From a virus, in the UHGV virus genome UHGV-2051569: a DNA stretch of 32,262 nucleotides. One strand, given 5' to 3'. The notes under the pieces were generated by a model. The model searched no databases. It had not been told where the DNA came from and worked only from the letters and a program-made list of their open reading frames with translations. A program made the position numbers and the translations under genes. Of this stretch, positions 4,678-27,940 are shown in pieces (the first letter of the stretch is position 1; every line of letters starts with the position of its first letter).

Positions 4678-5097
4678 TCGTGTTTCCGCTTCGCCGGAGC
4701 GCCTTTTCGCGCCATGTGATGAGTTCGGTCAGGCTCATGGGATACAGTTCTGATGGCGGCCAGTGAAATATCACTGCCACATCCGCCATCAGGTCATCGA
4801 CCGAGAGATTTTTCGGAAACGTCACTGCACCGAGTTCGGCGACAAAAAACCGACCACCTTACCGGCCAGCGCCACAAGGTCAGGCAGTTCCAGCGCGGCG
4901 ACTTCCTGCTCGGTCAGCATCGGTGCCGTCATGCGCGGCAGCACTTTAATCAGTGCATCGACTTCGGAGTTCGCGACTGCAGCCAGACTGACACCGCGCA
5001 GCGTCCCGGCATTGGGTTTCATTAGCGTGACCTGTTCGATAACCTGCTCACCACGTTTGACCGGATTGTCCAGGGTAATGACGTTTTCTTTGTTCAT
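4670..5097 (-). CDS. E+E' fusion made by programmed -1 ribosomal frameshift
   Basis: Zero-frame codons GGT TTT TTG contain the slippery heptamer T_TTT_TTG. I translated the -1 frame from that point and found 57 stop-free codons ending at a TAA that overlaps the T start codon; 85+57=142 aa, matching P2 E+E' as recalled. Confidence 0.7.
4822..5097 (-). CDS. E: Tail assembly chaperone E (P2 gpE-like)
   Basis: 91-aa ORF ending ...GFLSPNSVQ; position between FII and T. Confidence 0.85.
   Translation of the reverse strand: MNKENVITLDNPVKRGEQVIEQVTLMKPNAGTLRGVSLAAVANSEVDALIKVLPRMTAPMLTEQEVAALELPDLVALAGKVVGFLSPNSVQ
4843..4849 (-). other. Slippery heptamer TTTTTTG for the E/E' -1 frameshift
   Basis: Minus-strand sequence GG-TTT-TTG-TCG inside E, six codons before the E stop. 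Confidence 0.7.
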
Positions 5098-10072: not shown

Positions 10073-10677
10073 GCGTTCACTCTCAGATTATCAATCAAAT
10101 GGATGGCCGAGGCCGGGTAATATTCACCGCCGACGACAATCTCCTCGGGGGTGTAGGGGTAAACAGTCAGCGCGTCGCCGTGATAGCATCCCGCGCCGAC
10201 ATACAGTTCGCCGGTCGAGCTCAGACTGATAGCCAGCCCGGTCAGGTGGCGACTTGCCGGTTTGGCGTCTTCAATCAGGCGCTCAAGCTCCTGATACATT
10301 TCGTCAGTGATGCCGCTGTCGAGGACGCCAACAACGAGGCGGAATGTGCCTGGCTCCTCGTCGAGTTGCCACCACTCGCGCACCTCAATCAGAAAGCCGA
10401 GCGGCTCGACGACCCGACGCAATGCGCTGATGGTGCCTTTGTGCTGATGGACGAAAAACGAGGACGCGCAGACGCTGCGCTTTGTCGCCTCCGGCCATTT
10501 CTCATCCCACCTGTCGACCGACAGCGCCCACGCCAGATACGGCAGCAGCTTTACCGGGCAGGTGCGCCAGTTCCACAGGGTGCGCAGCGGTACCGGCACG
10601 TGCTGAATCTCAGAGAACGCAGCGGCGGCGGCGACCTCCAGCGGCGACGAGCCAACGGGTAATAGCCGGTCATTCAT
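10069..10677 (-). CDS. I: Baseplate/tail protein I (P2 gpI-like)
   Basis: 202-aa ORF between J and H with overlapping start/stop codons. Confidence 0.85.
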
Positions 10678-11584: not shown

Positions 11585-11932
11585 TTAACTCAGTGAAACA
11601 GTGGTTGAAACTGACGCACCGGTATCGGTACGCATCCCGGTAATATCGACATACATCTCGCCAGCGTCGCCGGCCTCAAAGCTGATGGATGTATGCCTGA
11701 TGCGCGGTTCCCACTTCTGGATAGCCGAATAGCACGCCACCATAATTTGCAGCCTGAGCGCCGGGTTTTGCGGCATATCAATCAGCGCCGACAGAAGCGA
11801 GCCATATTCACGACGCATCACCCGCGAGCCGACCGGCGTCAGCAGAATATCGCGCATGCTCTGGCTGATATGCTCGGTATCGCTGATGCCAAGGCCGGTA
11901 TTTCGGTTCATCCCCTGATAGCGCGCCGTCAT
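11585..11932 (-). CDS. W: Baseplate protein W (gp25/GPW lysozyme-like fold family)
   Basis: 115-aa ORF following V; P2 gpW-like. Confidence 0.85.
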   Translation of the reverse strand: MTARYQGMNRNTGLGISDTEHISQSMRDILLTPVGSRVMRREYGSLLSALIDMPQNPALRLQIMVACYSAIQKWEPRIRHTSISFEAGDAGEMYVDITGMRTDTGASVSTTVSLS

Positions 11933-12564
11933 AACGGTGCCCCCGTTTGCCCGCCGCTGTCGCCCGGGTGTTTATGGGTGTGGAGTACCTTGCCATTAGA
12001 CGACAGTGACCCGCCGGTATGTTCGATATTGCCGCTCATCTTGCCGCCTTTCTGCACCTCAAGCGTCGCCGTCGTTAGCTTATTGGTGCAAATCACCTCC
12101 GGGGTGTCGAGGGTGATACTGGTCGAGGCTTTCACCAGTACCAGCGGTACAGTTGCGGTGATGGACTCCGATGCCGTCACGTCGGCCGTTTTTATGCCGC
12201 TGACCGTCAGCGCGCCGGTTTCGGGCTCGTACTCAATGACCGCACCATCAGGGAAAGCCACATGCCACGCATCCGCCGAGGCAGACGGGGCGGGGTTATC
12301 GTCGGAGAAAATACCCGGCAGCACGAAAGCGGTATCAAGCTCGCCACCGATTGCCAGCAGCAGAACCTGCTCACCGACCGAGGGAGCCCACCACGTCCGC
12401 GAACGACCGGCGCGGGTGGTCAGCCAGTTCAGCCATGTAGTCTGGATCCCGCCGCTTTGTACGCGGCACAGCCCCTGCACAGTATCGACCTCAGTCACCA
12501 CGCCTGAGCGGATGAGGTTGCGAATGGCACGTGCTAACTCTTGAATGGTGTTTAATGTGTTCAT
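11929..12564 (-). CDS. V: Baseplate spike/assembly protein V (P2 gpV-like)
   Basis: Product MNTLNTIQELARAIRNLIRSGVV... matches P2 gpV N-terminus as recalled; start set at the ATG two codons inside the track ORF. Confidence 0.9.
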   Translation of the reverse strand: MNTLNTIQELARAIRNLIRSGVVTEVDTVQGLCRVQSGGIQTTWLNWLTTRAGRSRTWWAPSVGEQVLLLAIGGELDTAFVLPGIFSDDNPAPSASADAWHVAFPDGAVIEYEPETGALTVSGIKTADVTASESITATVPLVLVKASTSITLDTPEVICTNKLTTATLEVQKGGKMSGNIEHTGGSLSSNGKVLHTHKHPGDSGGQTGAPL

Positions 12565-12701
12565 GAACAAAGAATGCCGATTGTTAAAGCCAAGAGCAAA
12601 ACGATTCAGCTGTATGCTCTTCTACACAATTCGGTGTGCATTCATGTATCATTTGAGTGTTGACTCATTCGAAAATCACACAAAACATATGGCAGGTAGT
12701 A

Positions 12702-13538
12702 ATGAAAAGAACTTCATCTTTTAGGCGTACAATAAGCAATATGAAATATATTATAGGTATCTTTTTTTTATACTCCGGGCTTATAGTAGGGTTGTCTGTT
12801 TATAATGATAACTACAACTCAAAATTCATGGAGAATTTTCTTGTTAATGCAAATTCTTCAATTTTAGATTTTCTTGTTTTGGGTGTGATTCTTTACTATT
12901 TTGAAAATAAAAGGCAAAATAAAGATGCTATTCACGAACTAATTGAAGATCTTGAAAATCTGGCAAAGCATTCTTCTGCAGAACTGAATATTATGAAGAT
13001 AAAAATCATACGTCAGTTAAATGCTAAAGGAATATATAACATTCAAGTTCCAAGGATTGAACTTGATAAAATGTCCACTATCAAATATTTACATTTTAAA
13101 GACGCTGACTTAACCGGCTTGAATATGAGCGAATCATACATTAGAGATTGTTCTTTCGATAATTGCACAATTCAAGCTCTAAATATTACAGGCAATAGAG
13201 TTAAGAGTGTTAAATTCAAAAACTGCAAGCTAAGAAATATTAAGGCATTTAATACATGTTTTCAAAATGTCACTTTCGAAAACTGCAGTTTTGAAGGGGG
13301 GTATTTTACAGATAGCGAAATGAAAAGCTGCATATTAAAAGGATGTGATTTTAAATCCGTTACTTATGAAGGGGCTAACATGCGGAATGCAAATCTATTA
13401 AATTCAATTAACATTAACGTTAAAGAACTTGTTAAAGCAAAAAACATAGATTATTTAATTTGTGATGAGCAAATTAAAAATGAAATAAGAAAGGAAAACC
13501 CAGCAATAAAAATATCGAGAGGAATAATACGAGGTTAG
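12702..13538 (+). CDS. Cargo (moron) gene: membrane-anchored pentapeptide-repeat protein, function unknown
   Basis: AT-rich ORF antisense to the flanking late genes. It has two N-terminal hydrophobic helices (YIIGIFFLYSGLIVGLSVY, ILDFLVLGVILYYF) and about 20 consecutive 5-residue repeats with a hydrophobic fifth position (KDADL TGLNM SESYI RDCSF DNCTI ...). Start chosen at MKRTSS with a weak AGGT RBS. Confidence 0.6.
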   Translation: MKRTSSFRRTISNMKYIIGIFFLYSGLIVGLSVYNDNYNSKFMENFLVNANSSILDFLVLGVILYYFENKRQNKDAIHELIEDLENLAKHSSAELNIMKIKIIRQLNAKGIYNIQVPRIELDKMSTIKYLHFKDADLTGLNMSESYIRDCSFDNCTIQALNITGNRVKSVKFKNCKLRNIKAFNTCFQNVTFENCSFEGGYFTDSEMKSCILKGCDFKSVTYEGANMRNANLLNSININVKELVKAKNIDYLICDEQIKNEIRKENPAIKISRGIIRG

Positions 13539-13628
13539 GGAATCGAACCCAACTCAGTGGGCACGCCCACCTAGACACCAGTCCACCTCTATCGCTGAGT
13601 TATATAATAATTCTCAGCGAATCCAAAG

Positions 13629-14084
13629 TCAATGGCGTTGACATAAAGCATCCATAATTAAACTCTCAACTTTTTGTAAGTCTGATGAAGAGTATCCGAG
13701 CAACGGTCGCGCCTCGTACTGCACATCCCGGCTGTTGCGGTTTGGCCGGTCTTTTAGGCCGTACTGATGCACCCGCGCCATGCGCTGCACCTTGCCGGTA
13801 AACTCCACCACCGCCGCACTGTCGCTGCCTTTGGCTTTCATAAAGCGACTGGTGCGCAGTTTGGCGAACATTTCACGTTTAATCCGACCTTTCTTGCTCC
13901 GCACCGGCTGGCGCTTTCGTGCCGCATACGGGGTGCCGTCGGGTGCCTGCTGGCGCTTGATACGCTGTTGCTGACTGGTACGCAGCTTTTTCGCAACCTC
14001 AACCGCCATTTGCCGACGTGCCGCCGGTGACAGGCTGGCAATCAGACCGGCAAGGCGTTCCTGCAGCGCGGTTAATTCACTCAT
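13629..14084 (-). CDS. S: Tail completion / virion morphogenesis protein S (P2 gpS-like)
   Basis: 151-aa basic protein in the conserved position after R. Confidence 0.8.
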   Translation of the reverse strand: MSELTALQERLAGLIASLSPAARRQMAVEVAKKLRTSQQQRIKRQQAPDGTPYAARKRQPVRSKKGRIKREMFAKLRTSRFMKAKGSDSAAVVEFTGKVQRMARVHQYGLKDRPNRNSRDVQYEARPLLGYSSSDLQKVESLIMDALCQRH

Positions 14085-21340: not shown

Positions 21341-22387
21341 ATGGGTAAACAAAAATCCCGTAAAGCCAACGCACAAAAGGCCAGCAAACCACAACAACTG
21401 ACCGCCAGCACACCGCCAAAAACGACAGCGTTCACCTTCGGCGAGCCGGTGCCGGTACTCGATAAGCGCGACATTCTGGATTACGTCGAGTGCATCAGTA
21501 ACGGCAAATGGTACGAGCCGCCGGTCAGCTTCTCAGGGCTGGCAAAGAGCCTGCGCTCTGCCGTGCATCACAGCTCGCCAATTTATGTTAAGCGTAACGT
21601 GCTCGCGAGCACCTACATTCCGCACCCGTTGTTATCCCGTCAGGATTTCAGCCGCTTTGCGCTCGATTATCTGGTGTTCGGTAACGCCTTTCTTGAGCAG
21701 CGCCACAGCGTCACCGGCCAGTTAATCAAACTGCTGGCCTCGCCAGCCAAATACACCCGACGCGGAGTCGACGATTCGATTTTCTGGTTTGTGGAAAACT
21801 TCACCCAGCCGCACGAGTTCGCGCCTGATACCGTGTTTCACCTGCTGGAGCCCGACATTAATCAGGAGATTTACGGCCTGCCCGAATATCTCAGCGCGCT
21901 AAATTCCGCCTGGCTGAATGAATCCGCGACGCTGTTCCGCCGCAAGTATTATCAGAACGGCGCGCACGCGGGTTACATCATGTATGTGACTGACCCGGCG
22001 CAGAGCGCGACCGACGTCGAATCGCTGCGCGAGGCGATGCGCAACTCAAAAGGGCTCGGCAACTTTAAGAACCTGTTTTTCTACGCTCCCGGCGGAAAAC
22101 CGGACGGCATCAAAATCGTGCCACTGAGCGAGGTCGCCACAAAGGATGACTTTTTCAACATCAAGAAGGCCAGTGCCGCCGATCTGATGGACGCGCACCG
22201 CGTACCGTTCCAGCTCATGGGCGGCAAGCCCGAGAATATCGGTTCACTCGGTGATGTTGAGAAGGTGGCAAAGGTATTTGTGCGCAACGAGCTGTCGCCG
22301 CTACAGGACAGGTTCAGGGAGGTAAATGACTGGCTCGGCATGGAGGTCATCAGATTCAAAGAGTACACCCTCGACAACCCAGAATAA
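21341..22387 (+). CDS. Q: Portal protein Q
   Basis: 348-aa ORF translationally coupled to P and transcribed towards cos, as in P2. Confidence 0.95.
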   Translation: MGKQKSRKANAQKASKPQQLTASTPPKTTAFTFGEPVPVLDKRDILDYVECISNGKWYEPPVSFSGLAKSLRSAVHHSSPIYVKRNVLASTYIPHPLLSRQDFSRFALDYLVFGNAFLEQRHSVTGQLIKLLASPAKYTRRGVDDSIFWFVENFTQPHEFAPDTVFHLLEPDINQEIYGLPEYLSALNSAWLNESATLFRRKYYQNGAHAGYIMYVTDPAQSATDVESLREAMRNSKGLGNFKNLFFYAPGGKPDGIKIVPLSEVATKDDFFNIKKASAADLMDAHRVPFQLMGGKPENIGSLGDVEKVAKVFVRNELSPLQDRFREVNDWLGMEVIRFKEYTLDNPE

Positions 22388-22417
22388 CTTAGGCCGCCAC
22401 AATCTCTGCGCTCATTA

Positions 22418-22446
22418 TTGAAGATGCAATCTGCGAAAGCTATAGT
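22418..22446 (+). promoter_or_regulatory. Candidate sigma70 promoter for the post-portal cargo gene
   Basis: TTGAAG, 17-bp spacer, TATAGT, ending about 18 bp before the ATG at 22465. Confidence 0.4.
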
Positions 22447-22464
22447 GCATCGAATATCAAAACA

Positions 22465-23469
22465 ATGGGCGCGGAGATTAATATTTTGGAAACTGATTTT
22501 AAAATAACCCTCGAAGGTTTCGCTACTGAGCAAGAAGCAAATAATATCGGTAATTTCACACTAGAAGCTATCCGAGCTTTAACAAAAAATCTCAATCTTG
22601 ATATCTCCAAATTAAAATGCGTGATTGTTTCCTATAACTTCAGTGAAGCTCTTCAAAAGGTAACATCCTCTTACCAACACAAATCCCCTAGTTCATTTAC
22701 CAATAGCAAACAGGGCGCAGCCGTCGGGCAGTTAGTAACAAAAATTGGCAATGATGGGCTATGTGAAGAATATACCCTTGTGCTATCGATTGATTTTTTT
22801 GTTGAGCTTTTCAATGATGGTAGCTTCTTAAAACTGAAAGAAGAAGGATACCTCGCAGTCATCCATCGCATTCACCATGAATTAGTGCACGTACATGAAA
22901 AAAACTTACTAACATGCTTAGCCCAAAACTTTACAGTCAACGAGTATGGTAGCGCGCTTCTTATCTCAGCCACGCGTGCGTGGTCTGAATATCTCGCTAA
23001 TTACATGTCTTCGGGGTCTGCCCCTCAAGAAACTATCGATTTATTTTTAGAGAATCTTGACACTGTTGTAAATGAAGTATCTGACGAGATTGAAAAACTC
23101 ATCTGGGGTTATAAGTACGGTAATATTTCTCTGAATGACATGTATCTCGAAGTAAAAAAACGTATCAGGCTAATCATCAACTCTTATGCTTATGCGATGG
23201 GTTATGTCCATTCTCTAAACATCAATATTAAAGAATACGATCCAAAGCTATCCCTTACACTATCCAACTCAAAGATAAGATATCAATTATCAGAATTAGG
23301 CATTGCTTTTCAGAATCTTTATGGGAAGTTTAATGACCAGCACATTACAGGTTTTGGTGATTTTCGGGAGATAACAATAATCATTGATGAAATATTCAAG
23401 CAGTTTGGGCTTGTTTTAGAGTGTCCCGATTGGTCTGGCGACGGTGAACTCTACATACATGTAAATTAG
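22465..23469 (+). CDS. Cargo gene between portal and cos: hypothetical protein with an HExxH motif (possible metallopeptidase-like)
   Basis: 334-aa AT-rich ORF containing ...AVIHRIHHELVHVHEKN...; no obvious RBS; located between the Q stop and the cos-like site. Confidence 0.55.
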   Translation: MGAEINILETDFKITLEGFATEQEANNIGNFTLEAIRALTKNLNLDISKLKCVIVSYNFSEALQKVTSSYQHKSPSSFTNSKQGAAVGQLVTKIGNDGLCEEYTLVLSIDFFVELFNDGSFLKLKEEGYLAVIHRIHHELVHVHEKNLLTCLAQNFTVNEYGSALLISATRAWSEYLANYMSSGSAPQETIDLFLENLDTVVNEVSDEIEKLIWGYKYGNISLNDMYLEVKKRIRLIINSYAYAMGYVHSLNINIKEYDPKLSLTLSNSKIRYQLSELGIAFQNLYGKFNDQHITGFGDFREITIIIDEIFKQFGLVLECPDWSGDGELYIHVN

Positions 23470-23688
23470 TTTAATCATAGTAGAAACATAATTAGCAGTT
23501 TGAATCCTGCCACTCCTGTAAAGCCGCTGCTCCTGGTGGCTTTTCCATGCACACCACCATCACGCATCAGATGCGTCTCACGCGCACGAACACACCCGAC
23601 CACCAACGAACCAGCAGCGACCACGACAGCGCCATCACGACGCGCTCAGAGGATAATTTTTATTATTACGCATCACTGCTGGCGCGCA

Positions 23689-23707
23689 ATGCTTTCCCCG
23701 CCACGCC
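23689..23707 (-). other. cos cohesive-end site
   Basis: Minus strand reads GGCGTGGCGGGGAAAGCAT, matching the 19-nt cohesive end of P2/186-type phages as recalled; GC-rich flanks with repeated GTGATG/GGTGG motifs. Confidence 0.7.
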
Positions 23708-23852
23708 TGCCCGCTTTATGGGTCGGTTTTAATGCAGTTGCATGACCTCGCTTTAGCTAAGCTACTACCGGTACTCCTTATGTTTTGGCGGTTGGATCAA
23801 CGCATGCAAAAAAATGCAGTGGCATGCACACATTCATTACATCTTATTTATC

Positions 23853-24569
23853 TTATCGAACCCTTTTTTCCAGATTGAGTAGGGCTTTTTTGCATTTTTT
23901 TTGATTAATAAACGTTCTATCCAGTATCTTTATATGAAACATCATTACTCTATTGAAGCAAATAAACATTTCTCGGGCATCCTGGCCAACAATCAGAAAC
24001 GACTCGCCATTAATATTTGGAATGTTGCTATTCTTCGATAAATCATCAAATGCCTCAGAGCCACGTTCATTTCTATACATTTCTTTAATAGCCATTACTT
24101 CATCGTGGCGAACGATATTAATCCAAATTAATTTATCTACAGTCAACAATTGCCCATACTCTAAGAAAAATACTCCCTTGGCTAACCAGGTGCCGTATTG
24201 GTAAATCTCCCTACCATTTAGGGGTAATGTTATCTGCGCACCTTTTTTTGTATGCCTAACACTCTGGAATGCTTCACGAAATTTCGAGTCTTTTCTTTTA
24301 AGCGCATTATGGAATTTATTAACAGCATCAAAGCTGCCTGTTGAGTGCTCTCCTACCATGCGGCAAATGACACCTAACACCTCGTCAATTCGGCTTTTAT
24401 CGCCATTGCACTTTTTGCATACATAGAAATCACCTTCGCCGTTGGTTCTATGAATGGAGACTGAAACTTGCGGAATCATGTGTTCAACTGAGCGGCAGTG
24501 GGGGTGATTTTCAACCTTATTCATGAGAACACCGCAATAAACGCAGTGTGTGCTTGGTTTCATATACAT
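23853..24569 (-). CDS. Cargo gene: HNH (His-Me finger) nuclease-domain protein with an uncharacterised C-terminal domain
   Basis: N-terminal CVYCG ... VEHMIPQ ... N ... CKKCNGDKS fits the Cys4 plus catalytic His/Asn HNH pattern; AT-rich; start uncertain (24644, 24569 or 24563; a weak AAGGG RBS precedes the inner ATGs). Confidence 0.6.
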   Translation of the reverse strand: MYMKPSTHCVYCGVLMNKVENHPHCRSVEHMIPQVSVSIHRTNGEGDFYVCKKCNGDKSRIDEVLGVICRMVGEHSTGSFDAVNKFHNALKRKDSKFREAFQSVRHTKKGAQITLPLNGREIYQYGTWLAKGVFFLEYGQLLTVDKLIWINIVRHDEVMAIKEMYRNERGSEAFDDLSKNSNIPNINGESFLIVGQDAREMFICFNRVMMFHIKILDRTFINQKKCKKALLNLEKRVR

Positions 24570-24665
24570 TGCCCTTACAATGTCTAATGACGAATGAGTA
24601 GCACTAAAATAACACAAATCTGATGGTGGGATGTCAGCCCCCATGCTTTAGATTGGACATACGAA

Positions 24666-24688
24666 AACCGGCTTTAATAGTGCCGGTT
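24666..24688 (-). terminator. Candidate intrinsic terminator separating the tum-like operon from the HNH gene
   Basis: Stem aaccggc/gccggtt with a 9-nt loop, followed on the minus strand by TTTTCGTAT. Confidence 0.35.
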
Positions 24689-24710
24689 TGGGCCAATCTC
24701 TACGGAACAG

Positions 24711-24782
24711 ACTAACCCCTAGAGGGACTCGTTGTTCAACCCTCCAGTACCGAAAGCAAGTTTCAGCGCCGACGGCGTTCGC
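24711..24782. repeat. ~70-bp imperfect direct repeat, copy A
   Basis: actaacccctagagggactcgttgttcaaccctccagtaccgaaagcaagtttcagcgccgacggcgttcg aligns at roughly 80% with copy B. Confidence 0.55.
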
Positions 24783-24991
24783 TATCTTCGACATGGTGGT
24801 GGCGCATATTGTGTCGGCCTGCTGATATCGTTCAGCTTATCGTAGTTATCCCTGACTATTTCTGCACACCCGACCAATTCCGCTGGCGTCAGGTTCTCAT
24901 TGACCATTATCGTCTGCAAGCGATGAACGATAGCCATCAGTTTTATGCTTTTAGTTTTGTGCTGCGGAATTTCGCCCGGTAGTCGATGCAT
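24782..24991 (-). CDS. Hypothetical small protein, distal gene of the LexA-boxed operon
   Basis: 69-aa ORF with a GAGGG RBS about 8 nt upstream; its 3' end runs into repeat copy A. Confidence 0.45.
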   Translation of the reverse strand: MHRLPGEIPQHKTKSIKLMAIVHRLQTIMVNENLTPAELVGCAEIVRDNYDKLNDISRPTQYAPPPCRR

Positions 24992-25113
24992 ATTATCGCC
25001 CTCAATGAATTTTATTCAGTGCTGTCAAAGCGCCACTATAAAATCCTCTAAGGTAACGTCCCATTAATCACCGGTGTGTAACCAATAAAACATCGAGAAA
25101 GTTTGAAAGGTAG

Positions 25114-25185
25114 AACTAACGCCTCTCGGAGCCAGTTTCAACCCCGCCAGCACTGAAAGCAAGATTCAGCACCGACGGCGTTTGT
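25114..25185. repeat. ~70-bp imperfect direct repeat, copy B
   Basis: actaacgcctctcggagccagtttcaaccccgccagcactgaaagcaagattcagcaccgacggcgtttg lies immediately 3' of the DinI-like gene stop. Confidence 0.55.
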
Positions 25186-25418
25186 TAATGCAGCCAGCTA
25201 TCGTCCTCCCATACCTGCTGCATGATTTCCATTACTCGTTTTTTATCTTCGTCCAGTTTCAAACCGCTTAACTCAACGCCATTAGCTGAGCCCTTACGAA
25301 TGCGGATAGCAGTCTTTGGGTAAATAGGTTGAAGATTGCGGTACAGCTCAGCCTCAAGTGCATCCAACGTTGCCTGACTAATTTTTTGCTCTTTATCCAA
25401 CGTGATATTGATTCTCAT
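25185..25418 (-). CDS. DinI-like protein (Tum-like antirepressor domain)
   Basis: 77-aa MRINITLDKEQKISQATLDALEAELYRNLQ...EDKKRVMEIMQQVWEDDSWLH aligns along its length with E. coli DinI as recalled; sits downstream of the LexA box. Confidence 0.8.
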   Translation of the reverse strand: MRINITLDKEQKISQATLDALEAELYRNLQPIYPKTAIRIRKGSANGVELSGLKLDEDKKRVMEIMQQVWEDDSWLH

Positions 25419-25421
25419 AAT

Positions 25422-25604
25422 CTAATCAGCCTTATAAAAATTATCATCTTCGGTTTCGTTATTTTCGCTGTTTGCTAGGTCTGCAATGAGAGTGAGCGCG
25501 AGCTTTAAGTCTGATGGCTTGCAGTTTGCAATCAGAGATACCTCGGCAATAAATTGCACACAAGCCCACTTTTGCTGCGTTCGGCTGAAATGTTCGCCAA
25601 CCAT
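25422..25604 (-). CDS. Small acidic protein, first gene after the LexA box; possibly the N-terminal part of an interrupted tum-like gene
   Basis: 60-aa ORF with a GGGAGGG RBS; it ends in TAG, followed by ATT and then the in-frame ATG of the DinI-like ORF. Confidence 0.5.
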   Translation of the reverse strand: MVGEHFSRTQQKWACVQFIAEVSLIANCKPSDLKLALTLIADLANSENNETEDDNFYKAD

Positions 25605-25624
25605 GAAATCCCTCCCATAGGGTT

Positions 25625-25642
25625 ACTGTATATTTATACAGT
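25625..25642 (-). promoter_or_regulatory. LexA (SOS) box overlapping the promoter of the tum-like operon
   Basis: tACTGTATATTTATACAGTa, a near-perfect CTGT-N8-ACAG palindrome about 20 bp upstream of the 60-aa ORF start. Confidence 0.75.
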
Positions 25643-25717
25643 AGCACGTATTGGCAAAAGATGGGAAGAAAAAAAACGAATAGAGCGATTGCTGTATGTG
25701 CATGATATGGATATGAA

Positions 25718-27940
25718 TTACTCATGTATTGGTTTTGATGCTTCAGCCATCGCCGCAACACGATTAAGGATTTTCCGAGCTTTAGCCTCATGCGATGGTG
25801 CTGCGGAAAATATTTCTCCTTTGGCCGTTCCGCGTAGCCATTTACCATCAAAACAACTTTTACCACCGGCCATCAGGTGCAGGGCTTCGCCCCGGCTGAT
25901 ATTAATGCCGGTTGTCAGATGTATTTCGTCGATAGTTTTAGCTATAGCTGCGTTTTGCTCATCCGTTCCGTGGATGAATTTTCGCCGTGCTGCTGGCTTT
26001 TGCTTCCTGAGTCGGTTGGTCAATTCTCGTCTTTCACGCCGACTCAGTGGTTTTGTTAAATCCAGTATCGGTGGATCGCTTTCGCTTCCCGTACAGTTAT
26101 TGACAGAACTCCGAGGGACGGCTTTGCCGTCCTGAAGGTCAACGGCCAAATCAACAGCACGCTTCGGAACAATCTTCCACTGAGTGAGCCGGGTTAAAAT
26201 CGGGCTTCCTGCACCTATGGAGGAATCGTAGACCCCCTTAATACATACCGTTTCCTCACCGTACTGATTAAGCTCGGTACGCGGTTCATACAGTGTGCGC
26301 ACCTGTAAATCGTCGCGACGGACAAACGGCCCACCCTGAGCATTAACATAACCAGCCCAGTCACCAGCGTCGGCGGCATCATGGACGGCGGCAAACTCAA
26401 CGCTCAGACCGTGCGCGGTTTCGGTATCAGCGAGGCGACGCAACTCACGGTAAACCGTCACCGGCGCACCACCAATAAACTGAAACTGACGGATGTGCCA
26501 GCGCGCAGCCCATGCTGAAACGGCGGGGGCTGTCTCTTTCAGCAGCTCACCGCTTTCATCATCGGTTTCACCATCGAGAGCATAACCGTCGATATTTTTT
26601 GAAATGTATTTAGCAACATAGCCGGTTGCGCTGCCTTTCTCCGGGTCAATGGACTCGGCGTGGAAACGTGCTTTTTTGGATTTATCGCTTTTCAGTTCGT
26701 GGCGGTCTTCTTTCCATGCGTATTTACGGACGATGGAGCGAACATATTCAACATATTCCGGCAGCATGAACATCAGCATGTGCCAGTGTGGAGTGCCGTC
26801 GTGATGGGGCTCGGCGACACGAATACCGAAAATACGGACATCTTCCCGATGTAGTTTGGCACGGATACGCGCCCAGATACCGGTTAGATAGTTTTGCGTG
26901 TCAGCCGGGCTGGCACCGCTCCATTTGCTGTTACGGTAACCGGCTTTAGTCGTGGCGTGATATTTTGACGGCGCGGTTAGAGTGTAAAACTCACCGACAT
27001 AACCGAGCTCATTACAGATGTTTTCAAACCCACGAATGCGGGTCATGAGCTCACAGCGGCGAATCGCAGGGTTAGCAACTGAGCCATCATATTTTTCAAT
27101 TAGGCTGATACGGTTGCCGTCTTCGTCTTCGAGATCCAGACCTTTGAGAAATTCACGAGTGCGGCGCTTTTGTTCACGCCAGTCAGTCACGCAGTTTTTA
27201 CTCGCGTAAGTGTTTTTTTTCTTACTGACGTTGCCGACTGCAATTTGCAGGTGTTCGCGCCACGTAGCTGCAACACGGCGCAAACGACCGCGCCACCACC
27301 CATCGTTAAACATTTTGGCGATAGCCGGTGCGATTTCATCCGCACCGACATATTTTTTTTCAACCCGCTCCCAATGTGGTGGGATAACGTTGAATTGGAG
27401 GGAAATAAAGCCAGCACGAATATACCAGGTGTACAGCGTTTTAAGCTCGCCGAATCCGTGGTCATTAATGTTGGCAAGTTCACCACGAATGAAATTAGCA
27501 ATATCAGCGGCCAACAGGTCAACATCAGCGCGCGACATGTCCGGGAGACGGTTATATTGGGCGACCATATTAACCATGCGTGACGACAGATATTGCATTT
27601 GCTGAGTATCAAAATGACTTCCAAAAACAGCGGTTGATACCTTGCTGTTGATACCAGCGCATTCGTATTTTTTTGCGACCAGTTCAAGACGCGGCAATGC
27701 CTTTTTGCAGAAGCTGATTAAAAATGCATTGGCTCGTTGACTACCCTGATTTTGCTCCAGCACCGCAGCAGTGCGATAAACATCTAACCGTACGCAGTCG
27801 GGCTGGAGAGAAAGCACCTTTTTTGCATGCAGCAAAGCCGCGAACATACGGTCGCGACGATGCTGTTGCTCATAAGTAAGGTATGGGCTGGGGATTGCCG
27901 ACCGTGGGACGTTCCACGGATAAGCGAATTGAACAGCCAA
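25718..27940 (-). CDS. A: Replication initiation protein A (rolling-circle nickase, P2 gpA-like)
   Basis: 740-aa ORF with the HxH metal-binding motif (HDGTPHWHMLMF) and catalytic Tyr region (GYVAKYISK) typical of P2 A-type initiators. Confidence 0.9.
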   Translation of the reverse strand: MAVQFAYPWNVPRSAIPSPYLTYEQQHRRDRMFAALLHAKKVLSLQPDCVRLDVYRTAAVLEQNQGSQRANAFLISFCKKALPRLELVAKKYECAGINSKVSTAVFGSHFDTQQMQYLSSRMVNMVAQYNRLPDMSRADVDLLAADIANFIRGELANINDHGFGELKTLYTWYIRAGFISLQFNVIPPHWERVEKKYVGADEIAPAIAKMFNDGWWRGRLRRVAATWREHLQIAVGNVSKKKNTYASKNCVTDWREQKRRTREFLKGLDLEDEDGNRISLIEKYDGSVANPAIRRCELMTRIRGFENICNELGYVGEFYTLTAPSKYHATTKAGYRNSKWSGASPADTQNYLTGIWARIRAKLHREDVRIFGIRVAEPHHDGTPHWHMLMFMLPEYVEYVRSIVRKYAWKEDRHELKSDKSKKARFHAESIDPEKGSATGYVAKYISKNIDGYALDGETDDESGELLKETAPAVSAWAARWHIRQFQFIGGAPVTVYRELRRLADTETAHGLSVEFAAVHDAADAGDWAGYVNAQGGPFVRRDDLQVRTLYEPRTELNQYGEETVCIKGVYDSSIGAGSPILTRLTQWKIVPKRAVDLAVDLQDGKAVPRSSVNNCTGSESDPPILDLTKPLSRRERRELTNRLRKQKPAARRKFIHGTDEQNAAIAKTIDEIHLTTGINISRGEALHLMAGGKSCFDGKWLRGTAKGEIFSAAPSHEAKARKILNRVAAMAEASKPIHE

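Follow-up and report, generated by a model that had tools for sequence, protein, structure and literature searches.

What does an AT-rich gene do in the middle of the tail genes of a prophage when it is read against the neighbours on both of its sides? The question is raised by the virus genome UHGV-2051569 (32,262 nucleotides, called here, at its full length, the window), in which the sole long open reading frame (ORF) of positions 12571-13628 runs on the + strand, opposed to the - strand tail genes V and S, and encodes a membrane protein with pentapeptide repeats. A first-pass annotation made from the letters of the sequence had described this gene as a moron and had overlooked a conserved tRNA-like element that lies on the opposite strand at its 3' end. 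The association between the gene and this element is the main result of our analysis. Together with the features of the protein and the genes found around its relatives, it suggests that the cassette is a protein-plus-RNA module, probably used in phage defence, and we weigh this reading here against the other explanations of the locus.

A tRNA-like element at the 3' end of the gene

The element is a predicted cloverleaf of about 66 nt at 13529..13594 on the - strand. At its 3' end it shares no more than 10 nt with the pentapeptide gene (12702..13538, +), namely the stop codon and the codons just before it. In the homologs, the block starting at the stop codon is conserved better than the protein, and consists of CGAGGyyAGGGAATCGAACC, a variable hairpin, GACACCAG, CTCTAT and then, about 108 nt on, AAAGTCAA; the latter is invariant and keeps this fixed distance in 10 of the 10 enterobacterial variants listed and in the Yersinia locus L037. 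Because several homologs translate through the block in differing frames, ending in tails such as ...GIEPNSVGKPT and ...EVRESNPTQ, its conservation is not at the level of the protein.

Analysis of the block with RNAalifold predicted a four-way junction, or cloverleaf, in which the arms read on the - strand follow the order of a tRNA, that is an acceptor-like stem, a D-like arm with the loop UGGU, a variable arm and a T arm with GGUUCGAUUCC. Both this T-loop and the D-loop-like CUGG are invariant in 11 sequences. The covariance model (CM R1), derived from nine enterobacterial variants, scored 90 bits on the window element and found the equivalent position in 10 other loci. Pairing statistics taken from an 11-sequence alignment fitted to this model showed 92.5% of the cells to be paired, versus at most 63% with slid partners, and compensatory change in 9 of the 15 pairs, versus 3.8 +/- 1.3 in shuffles. 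The cloverleaf folds on both strands with modest z-scores, and we assigned it to the - strand because of the T-loop and D-loop motifs and because this strand gives six G-U cells against one A-C cell. With its T-loop, the GG of its D-loop and a four-way junction that shows covariation, the modelled element has the features of a tRNA-like (elbow-forming) RNA. A canonical tRNA gene was rejected, since neither ARAGORN with default settings nor Rfam (RF00005 included) called the element as a tRNA or as a member of any other family, and since the arm at the anticodon position has, in place of a regular 7-nt loop, one of 2-9 nt whose sequence is variable. When the ARAGORN thresholds were lowered to 70%, five of eight variants gave a 'tRNA-???' call on the - strand, in which the anticodon loop was abnormal.

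The element has a promoter-like site of its own at 13604..13632 on the - strand (-35 TTGACT, 17 nt, -10 TATTAT), which with 10 of 12 matches is the best of the region. The -35 TTGACT contains the stop codon of gene S (13629-13631) and is invariant in every enterobacterial copy, and TTGACT-16-TAAAAT stands at the same place in the Acinetobacter plasmid locus L050. Between cloverleaf and promoter an inverted repeat, TCGCTGAG-N13-CTCAGCGA (13592..13620, given without strand), was read from the sequence; a hairpin occupies this zone at every compared locus, with arms that differ from one locus to another.

Two local variations of the element were also observed. In an Enterobacter P2-like prophage (L022, positions 2700-2765, the same as L033/L036) the 14-nt unit ATCGAGGTTAGGGA is tandemly triplicated at the junction between the end of the ORF and the element, which suggests slippage at the overlap of the stop codon with the acceptor stem. 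In the Acinetobacter plasmid L050 (5790-5830) the D-like loop of the element contains an extra hairpin of 15 nt, GGGAAUUUAUUCCC.

Linkage of the element to the gene

The element is present in all 14 E. coli genomes in which the gene occurs, and these 14 were the only ones matched in a sensitive BLAST search with the element. The exact pattern of the element gave eight matches in IMG/VR, all eight directly 3' of a homolog. The pair is present in those P2-like contexts that were inspected for it (the window and E. coli, Klebsiella, Salmonella, Enterobacter and Yersinia) and in the two non-P2 prophage contexts, and in all examined prophage copies from enterobacteria the element lies directly against the stop codon. 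In three Moraxellaceae plasmids the top match of the covariance model, run with filters off, likewise lies on the opposite strand and abuts the stop codon of the homolog (E values of 0.0018, 0.036 and 0.17). The model found no match in the loci of P2 (L017), 186, Midge, Paenibacillus or Bacteroidota.

In both Paenibacillus homologs a tRNA-like gene that passes the Rfam RF00005 threshold is located 130-160 nt upstream on the same strand, and the two copies of this gene differ essentially in the anticodon loop only, being read by ARAGORN as Ile-TAT and Ser-TGA; with about 77% identity between them across the region, the two loci were counted as one lineage. On these comparisons, the mobile form of the gene is accompanied in three lineages by an RNA gene of tRNA shape, with an anticodon region that can vary freely. 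Since the Paenibacillus tRNA-like gene is upstream and on the same strand, a purely antisense (type I) mechanism is argued against. The class of type I toxin-antitoxin (TA) systems was also rejected on other grounds, as a hydrophobic toxin of fewer than 60 amino acids and an overlapping antisense RNA that binds its mRNA are expected there, and here the protein has 278 amino acids and the overlap is of 10 nt at most.

The membrane pentapeptide protein

We took the gene to start at ATG 12702, giving a protein of 278 amino acids, which is the choice made by PGAP in E. coli prophages with 99.8% identity (WP_001530900.1, 'pentapeptide repeat-containing protein'); GTG 12657 and ATG 12741, the codon of the invariant Met14, are alternative starts. 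The two N-terminal transmembrane (TM) helices proposed in the first-pass annotation were recovered both by hydropathy and in an AlphaFold2 (AF2) model, the first at residues 16-34 (12747..12803, +; helix 15-34 in AF2) and the second, which carries the motif FLVNANSSILDFLVLGVILYY, at residues 45-66 (12834..12899, +). They are followed by a helical linker at residues 67-117 (12900..13052, +), predicted to be cytoplasmic, and by the pentapeptide domain at residues 118-240 (13053..13421, +), with about 22 repeats. Because the N-terminus bears a charge of +5 and is followed by two TM segments with a 10-residue loop between them, the predicted topology is N-in/C-in, with the repeats in the cytoplasm.

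The repeats proved as uninterrupted as had been announced, 21-23 consecutive pentapeptides running in one register from residue 130/135 to residue 239 with no breakdown of periodicity. Membership in the pentapeptide-repeat proteins is indicated by matches above the Pfam gathering thresholds to Pentapeptide_4 (PF13599; 1.9e-16, 60.3 bits, cutoff 38), Pentapeptide (PF00805; 8e-10, 38.5 bits, cutoff 20.2) and PF13576 (35.7 bits, cutoff 27). The AF2 model, for which an alignment of 26 sequences served as input, has a mean pLDDT of 85 and bears out the right-handed beta-helix, predicted at residues 118-240 with pLDDT values of 91-98; it also shows a single long helix at residues 40-87, in which TM2 extends into the cytoplasm. 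A further helix follows at residues 93-108, and the model ends in a small helical cap. Foldseek matched the model to MfpA, AlbG and QnrB1 with probability 1.0, in agreement with a right-handed quadrilateral beta-helix fold, and the searches of the PDB by Foldseek and by HMM returned only generic pentapeptide proteins, namely these three and designed solenoids.

In the 26-sequence alignment, whose members are otherwise 25-82% identical to the query, the best-conserved part of the protein is the TM2/linker region, with TM2 at the top and N49, S53, D56, F57, L60, G61, V62, L64, Y65 and Y66 invariant. The first-pass term membrane-tethered is right about the anchor and undersells the TM part. The other early proposal, a DNA mimic in the manner of Qnr and MfpA, was not borne out, because the repeat domain is basic in 26 of 26 relatives (net charge +1 to +9, pI 7.8-9.2) and in the window protein has a pI of 8.9 and a net charge of +6; a domain of this composition fits nucleic acid binding rather than imitation.

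No Pfam model matches the N-terminal domain, and neither Ion_trans/IRK nor Pfam SLATT was found in it. A SLATT-type 2-TM effector was tried and rejected, as the PADLOC model RTasSLATT reached 6e-5 only with the GTG-extended ORF and 0.0027 with the ATG ORF, and matched just one of the 26 members.

Insertion at the S-V site and the promoters of the cassette

The window is a P2/186-like prophage with its late genes on the - strand, among which J, W, V, S and R were recognised with Pfam; V (11929-12564, -) matches Phage_base_V, Phage_spike and Apex, and S (13629-14084, -) matches Phage_tail_S. As the first-pass annotation had noted, the composition of the block between these two genes is very different from that of its surroundings, with GC contents of 0.28-0.32 inside versus 0.57-0.63 outside (0.29 for the ORF itself versus 0.58 for its flanks). 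The pentapeptide gene has a GC content at third codon positions (GC3) of 0.26, versus 0.68 in the flanking genes, and the rare codons ATA, AGA, AGG and CTA make up 9.4% of it, versus 1.4% in those genes; from such codon counts we considered the idea that its many rare A-ending codons might make its expression dependent on phage-encoded tRNAs. In a comparison of junctions, the phages 186, Midge and RCIP0057 showed an empty site with S and V about 69 nt apart, and the block of about 1 kb (about 12631-13636) is on this account an insertion. Its limits, taken from the empty junctions and the GC profile, are 12631..13636 to within about +/-10 nt, without strand. These data support the view of the pentapeptide gene as a foreign accessory gene, or moron, transcribed against the late operons, and the earlier placing of it at the orf30 position of P2 holds for position and orientation, the two proteins being unrelated.

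At the other edge of the gene, the invariant AAAGTCAA/TTGACTTT end of the cassette contains the stop codon of S, and S is two codons longer than its homolog in 186, from which it follows that the insertion supplied the end of S.

The dyad TGT-N12-ACA, from which Ogr-dependent expression of the gene had been proposed, was found exactly at 12611..12628; the proposal itself did not survive the examination of its geometry. The centre of the dyad (12619.5) is 55.5 nt from the ATG of V at 12564. In the P2 record the 'activator binding site; activation of pV promoter' occupies 10239-10266 and the V operon starts at 10308, which is the V start codon, so that the distance is again 55.5 nt. Because its spacing equals that of the annotated P2 PV, the dyad is the late-activator (Ogr-type) site of PV, the late promoter of the - strand V operon. 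An Ogr/Delta-dependent promoter of the pentapeptide gene would require the dyad near -55 of the gene's own start, and was rejected with the dyad 74 nt upstream of the pentapeptide ATG and, by our estimate, some 39-40 nt from the start predicted for a + strand promoter. No deviation from the dyad is seen in the window or in three other P2-like loci (L003, L011 and L012), and the non-P2 locus L007 has a TGC variant of it.

That predicted + strand promoter is a sigma-70-like site at 12623..12652 (-35 TACACA, 18-nt spacer, -10 TATCAT; 9 of 12 matches), whose -35 overlaps the right half of the dyad. The arrangement (T/C)ACACA-N18-T(A/G)T(A/C)AT is kept in the window and in all four other compared loci, the non-P2 L007 included, and its geometry fits expression in the lysogen and not activation by Ogr.

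Further observations concern the same stretch. A V-operon start at the V start codon, as annotated in P2, implies a leaderless V mRNA, and the window keeps the 55.5-nt spacing. In L007, a non-P2 prophage of Citrobacter, the sequence CTACACAA (about 4860-4960) retains half of the PV dyad (TGC-N12-ACA) upstream of the -10, which hints that this copy was captured from a P2-type S-V site along with a piece of the phage promoter. A second + strand TTGACT is present in the window at 12659-12664, 7 nt past the -10, with TTGACT or TTGACA at the matching spot in L003, L011 and L012 and an AAnAAT-like hexamer 17 nt further; it could be a tandem promoter, or a mirror of the TTGACT at the opposite end of the cassette.

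Relatives of the protein and their genomic settings

Close relatives of the protein form 29 clusters among 5.8 billion proteins, all of them from Enterobacterales with the exception of one Paenibacillus protein of 27% identity. The first-pass annotation had asked whether homologs would be uniformly annotated as structural tail components, and the homology search gave no such picture: the protein matches PHROG 12514 (3.5e-142), which is labelled as of unknown function, and its name at NCBI is only 'pentapeptide repeat-containing protein'. When the first 130 residues alone were used as a profile, 799 cluster representatives were retrieved at E <= 0.001. As 142 of the 150 best of these representatives carry Pentapeptide Pfam domains, the architecture of two TM helices, helical linker and pentapeptide helix appears to be a fixed one; among the same 150 hardly any variation is seen at Asp56 (TM2) or Leu106 (linker), and the family-wide consensus of the linker is EEIDDFRxWxSEEAxxRIxGNIKRLN.

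The cassette is rare in E. coli (14 of 5426 complete genomes, always in the chromosome), and among deposited phages only vB_EcoM-613R3 has it. P2-like prophages of Klebsiella, Salmonella, Enterobacter and Yersinia have relatives of 52-82% identity at the S-V site, oriented as in the window, and relatives of 57-64% identity belong to the cargo zones of other, non-P2 prophages. In Citrobacter the gene stands between an SRAP gene and umuDC/dinI, close to tail-fibre genes; the other non-P2 copy has umuDC and a 93-aa ORF upstream, with a PDC-S02 candidate (1e-13) beyond umuDC, and an AbiJ-like gene (2e-13) downstream. More distant relatives (24-30% identity, in matches that include the TM region) were found on small Moraxellaceae plasmids. 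In Psychrobacter pA42P5 the remaining cargo consists of a SinI restriction-modification (RM) pair and an HNH endonuclease, and in Acinetobacter pittii pTCM-2 the gene is flanked by a RelE/ParE-NadS pair and a restriction endonuclease. These neighbours make a role in defence or exclusion plausible, which is the part of the first-pass proposal of a superinfection-exclusion or defence factor that stands; its version with an excluding DNA mimic is disfavoured by the basic repeat domain.

The setting of the Bacteroidota-type metagenomic relatives (L041, L044 and L045) is of another kind, as they are ordinary chromosomal genes in the order pdxA-rsmA-mgtE-(2-hydroxyacid dehydrogenase)-X-greA-HIT. This hints at a housekeeping role of the chromosomal branch, possibly related to ion transport. 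Because the Bacteroidota members are core-type chromosomal genes that lack the element, the family as a whole is, on its genomic contexts, not a defence family, and only its mobile branches, which occur only in cargo positions of prophages or plasmids, resemble one.

Proposed mechanism and alternative explanations

The explanation we prefer, and put forward tentatively as one that may well prove wrong, is that the cassette is a mobile two-part module, in which, by analogy with HalA, the pentapeptide-repeat channel protein of the Hailong system, the tRNA-like RNA would act on the repeat domain of a membrane effector for defence, or of TA-like nature, and thereby control it. As its first part, an inner-membrane protein would be made from a promoter belonging to the gene itself, with no dependence on the late operons of the phage. 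Because of the conserved Asp and the polar residues of TM2, the two TM helices would probably oligomerise into a membrane-perturbing or ion-conducting effector, and the long helix would join this TM part to the basic cytoplasmic beta-helix acting as the ligand-binding control domain. The second part would be the RNA of about 66 nt, transcribed convergently from the opposite strand, which would silence the effector as its ligand or antitoxin. Infection may remove or alter this RNA through shut-off of host transcription, degradation of RNA or tRNA, or phage enzymes directed at tRNA; with the RNA lost, the effector would be released and the growth of the infected cell would stop. This logic is modelled on the crown of Hailong HalA and on type III toxin-antitoxin systems. 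Its most specific version, in which the RNA is a genome-encoded guard ligand that sits on the beta-helices and closes an oligomeric 2-TM channel, to be opened by phage-induced loss, cleavage or sequestration of the RNA with abortion of the infection, is in our judgement unlikely to be right in all its parts.

Several facts weigh against this proposal. The similarity to HalA is limited to generic pentapeptide repeats, and the order of the domains is reversed. The matches of the covariance model in Moraxellaceae are individually weak (E 0.002-0.17) and persuasive by position only, and the covariation statistics come from few sequences in a partly model-fitted alignment. Guilt by association amounts to four contexts, no PADLOC model matches the protein robustly, and the functional part of the argument is drawn from sequence and models. 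The distant Bacteroidota members are chromosomal, have a conserved neighbourhood and, giving no match to the covariance model, are without the tRNA-like element. The element, finally, could be a terminator or insulator, or the relic of an integration site.

The main rival collects part of these points, and we consider it possible though rather doubtful. It assigns to the protein an accessory or housekeeping-type membrane role other than defence, such as a modulation of ion transport or of envelope physiology (lysogenic conversion), and makes of the element a structured 3' end, that is a bidirectional terminator, an insulator or an RNA-processing signal. The position of the Bacteroidota relatives beside mgtE and greA, seen on three independent contigs, speaks for it, as do the convergent downstream neighbour in the window, L007, L039 and L049 and the lack of a defence model matching the protein. 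An insulator, however, need not keep an invariant T-loop and D-loop GG while the proteins fall to 24-30% identity, nor does it require a conserved promoter of its own, and L050 and L051 have a co-directional gene downstream; the confinement of the mobile subfamilies to cargo positions is likewise not what a role outside defence leads one to expect.

Superinfection exclusion at the inner membrane, where the tethered beta-helix would mimic DNA or bind DNA ends and so block the entry of phage DNA or sequester ejected proteins, seems to us improbable. Classical Sie proteins are prophage-encoded, are located in the inner membrane and are transcribed against the late genes, all of which applies to the protein studied here as predicted, and its fold does match MfpA, AlbG and QnrB1. 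But a repeat domain predicted to be cytoplasmic, which is basic and has about 5.5 coils only, suits mimicry poorly, the polar conserved TM2 and the linked RNA element would be left unexplained, and relatives on small plasmids are not an especially good fit for a phage-specific role of exclusion.

We give little credence to a purely selfish addiction module, in which a membrane toxin and an RNA antitoxin would stabilise the cassette or plasmid with no anti-phage role. The tight linkage and convergence of gene and RNA, their carriage on small plasmids and the persistence of the cassette at a single prophage site through a divergence of the protein down to 52% identity are what addiction would produce; against it, type I toxins are far smaller than the protein, no repeats like those of type III systems are present and the toxicity is only putative. 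The boundary is in any case blurred, as many TA modules also abort infection.

An Ogr-activated late gene for a virion or tail-assembly component, which its position between tail genes and the late-activator dyad upstream of its start codon could recommend, is close to excluded by the exact PV geometry that the dyad has for the V operon on the other strand, by the empty site of 186, Midge and RCIP0057, by the occurrence of the gene outside P2-like phages and on plasmids and by a PHROG label that is not a structural one.

The S-V site and the meaning of the module

Among the hotspots of P2 mined so far for defence genes, namely gpA-Q, Z/fun and tail-to-CI, the S-V (orf30) site does not figure. 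The survey of Rousset 2022 covered the gpA-Q hotspot only, Vassallo 2022 added the fun locus, and Egorov 2024 treated gpA-Q, Z/fun and tail-to-CI as hotspots. A 2026 NAR survey (PMC13586616) mentions, without detail, a tail-gene hotspot downstream of GpL, in which the inclusion of the S-V site is not discernible. Our literature searches found no description of the protein family or of the element, and no defence module made of a pentapeptide protein and a tRNA-like RNA. To our knowledge, the ligands of pentapeptide repeats are mostly unknown, and the RNA would, if the proposed mechanism is true, be a concrete candidate for one. If confirmed, the RNA partner could make the cassette a new class, which under the same mechanism would be that of an RNA-gated membrane effector for defence, with prophages and plasmids as its carriers in bacteria from Enterobacterales to Moraxellaceae and Paenibacillus.

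The window has a second low-GC cargo zone (0.37-0.45) at 22388-25717, between the portal gene Q (21341-22387) and the replication gene A (25718-27940), an interval that is the classical old/tin hotspot. It contains an ORF of 334 aa on the + strand (22465-23469) with neither a Pfam nor a PADLOC match, and one of 263 aa on the - strand (23853-24644) with weak PtuB-like HNH matches (7e-5).

Comparison with known systems

As prophage cargo, and as a putative membrane effector whose control domain would bind nucleic acid, the gene belongs to known kinds. With Qnr, MfpA, AlbG and McbG the protein has in common the right-handed quadrilateral beta-helix fold. These four proteins are soluble and dimeric DNA mimics of acidic character, with about 8-10 coils, whereas the protein described here is predicted to be membrane-anchored and basic, with about 5.5 coils. 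A topoisomerase protector of this kind was rejected, given the two TM helices, the basic domain and NCBIfam scores of 27.3 against a cutoff of 240 for Qnr and of 28.1 against 360 for MfpA.

With Orf30 of P2 the gene shares the S-V insertion site, the orientation and the character of AT-rich, non-essential cargo, as well as hydrophobic segments according to our own reading of Orf30. Homology was ruled out, however, by an E value of 0.38 and by the lack of pentapeptide repeats in Orf30, and the P2 gene is also without a tRNA-like element.

The RNA part finds its nearest counterparts in the tRNA-like module of YrlA and in the P4 CI RNA processed by RNase P, which are bacterial tRNA-like small RNAs. 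The likeness consists in a small RNA of cloverleaf or elbow type with T-loop and D-loop signatures and no decoding anticodon loop; the element differs in that it matches no Rfam family, has no rsr/rtc genes nearby and is partnered with a membrane pentapeptide protein.

As a pair, the gene and its element resemble the type III TA systems (ToxIN), in which a protein effector is encoded next to a small structured RNA on plasmids and prophages. Type III systems act by abortive infection, and their antitoxins are tandem repeats located upstream on the same strand and processed by the endoribonuclease toxin. Here, in contrast, there is a single tRNA-like unit, which in proteobacteria is convergent with the gene, and its partner is a membrane protein that has pentapeptide repeats and no nuclease domain.

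The closest parallel is Hailong. The best NCBIfam match of the protein is HalA (NF051894), at 2e-12; identity with HalA was rejected, since the 46.9 bits of this match stand against an equivalog cutoff of 250 and the match spans the repeats only. No channel Pfam domain was matched, and the TM helices are N-terminal and separated by a loop of about 10 residues without a P-loop. HalB was also looked for, and the neighbours in the window are V and S, with no nucleotidyltransferase (NTase) next to the gene here or in any prophage or plasmid context examined. A Hailong-like system has been reported in P4 hotspots (PMC13586616). In two articles (PMC13586616; PMC13434031, summarising Tan et al. 2025), HalA is described as combining pentapeptide repeats with a channel domain and forming a tetramer, the cytoplasmic crown of which binds an inhibitory oligo-dA as a guard against phage, and the inhibition is described as being relieved by phage exonuclease. 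The present protein is like HalA (PDB 9nyi) in being a membrane protein carried on mobile elements, in which pentapeptide repeats are combined with a transmembrane effector domain. The two differ in their architecture, as the repeats of HalA are N-terminal to a channel of IRK type, whereas here a 2-TM domain precedes them. They would differ also in the ligand, which in Hailong is an enzymatically made oligo-dA and here would be a tRNA-like RNA encoded in the genome. If the proposed mechanism is true, the Hailong principle of a nucleic acid guarding a membrane effector would thus be extended to an encoded RNA.

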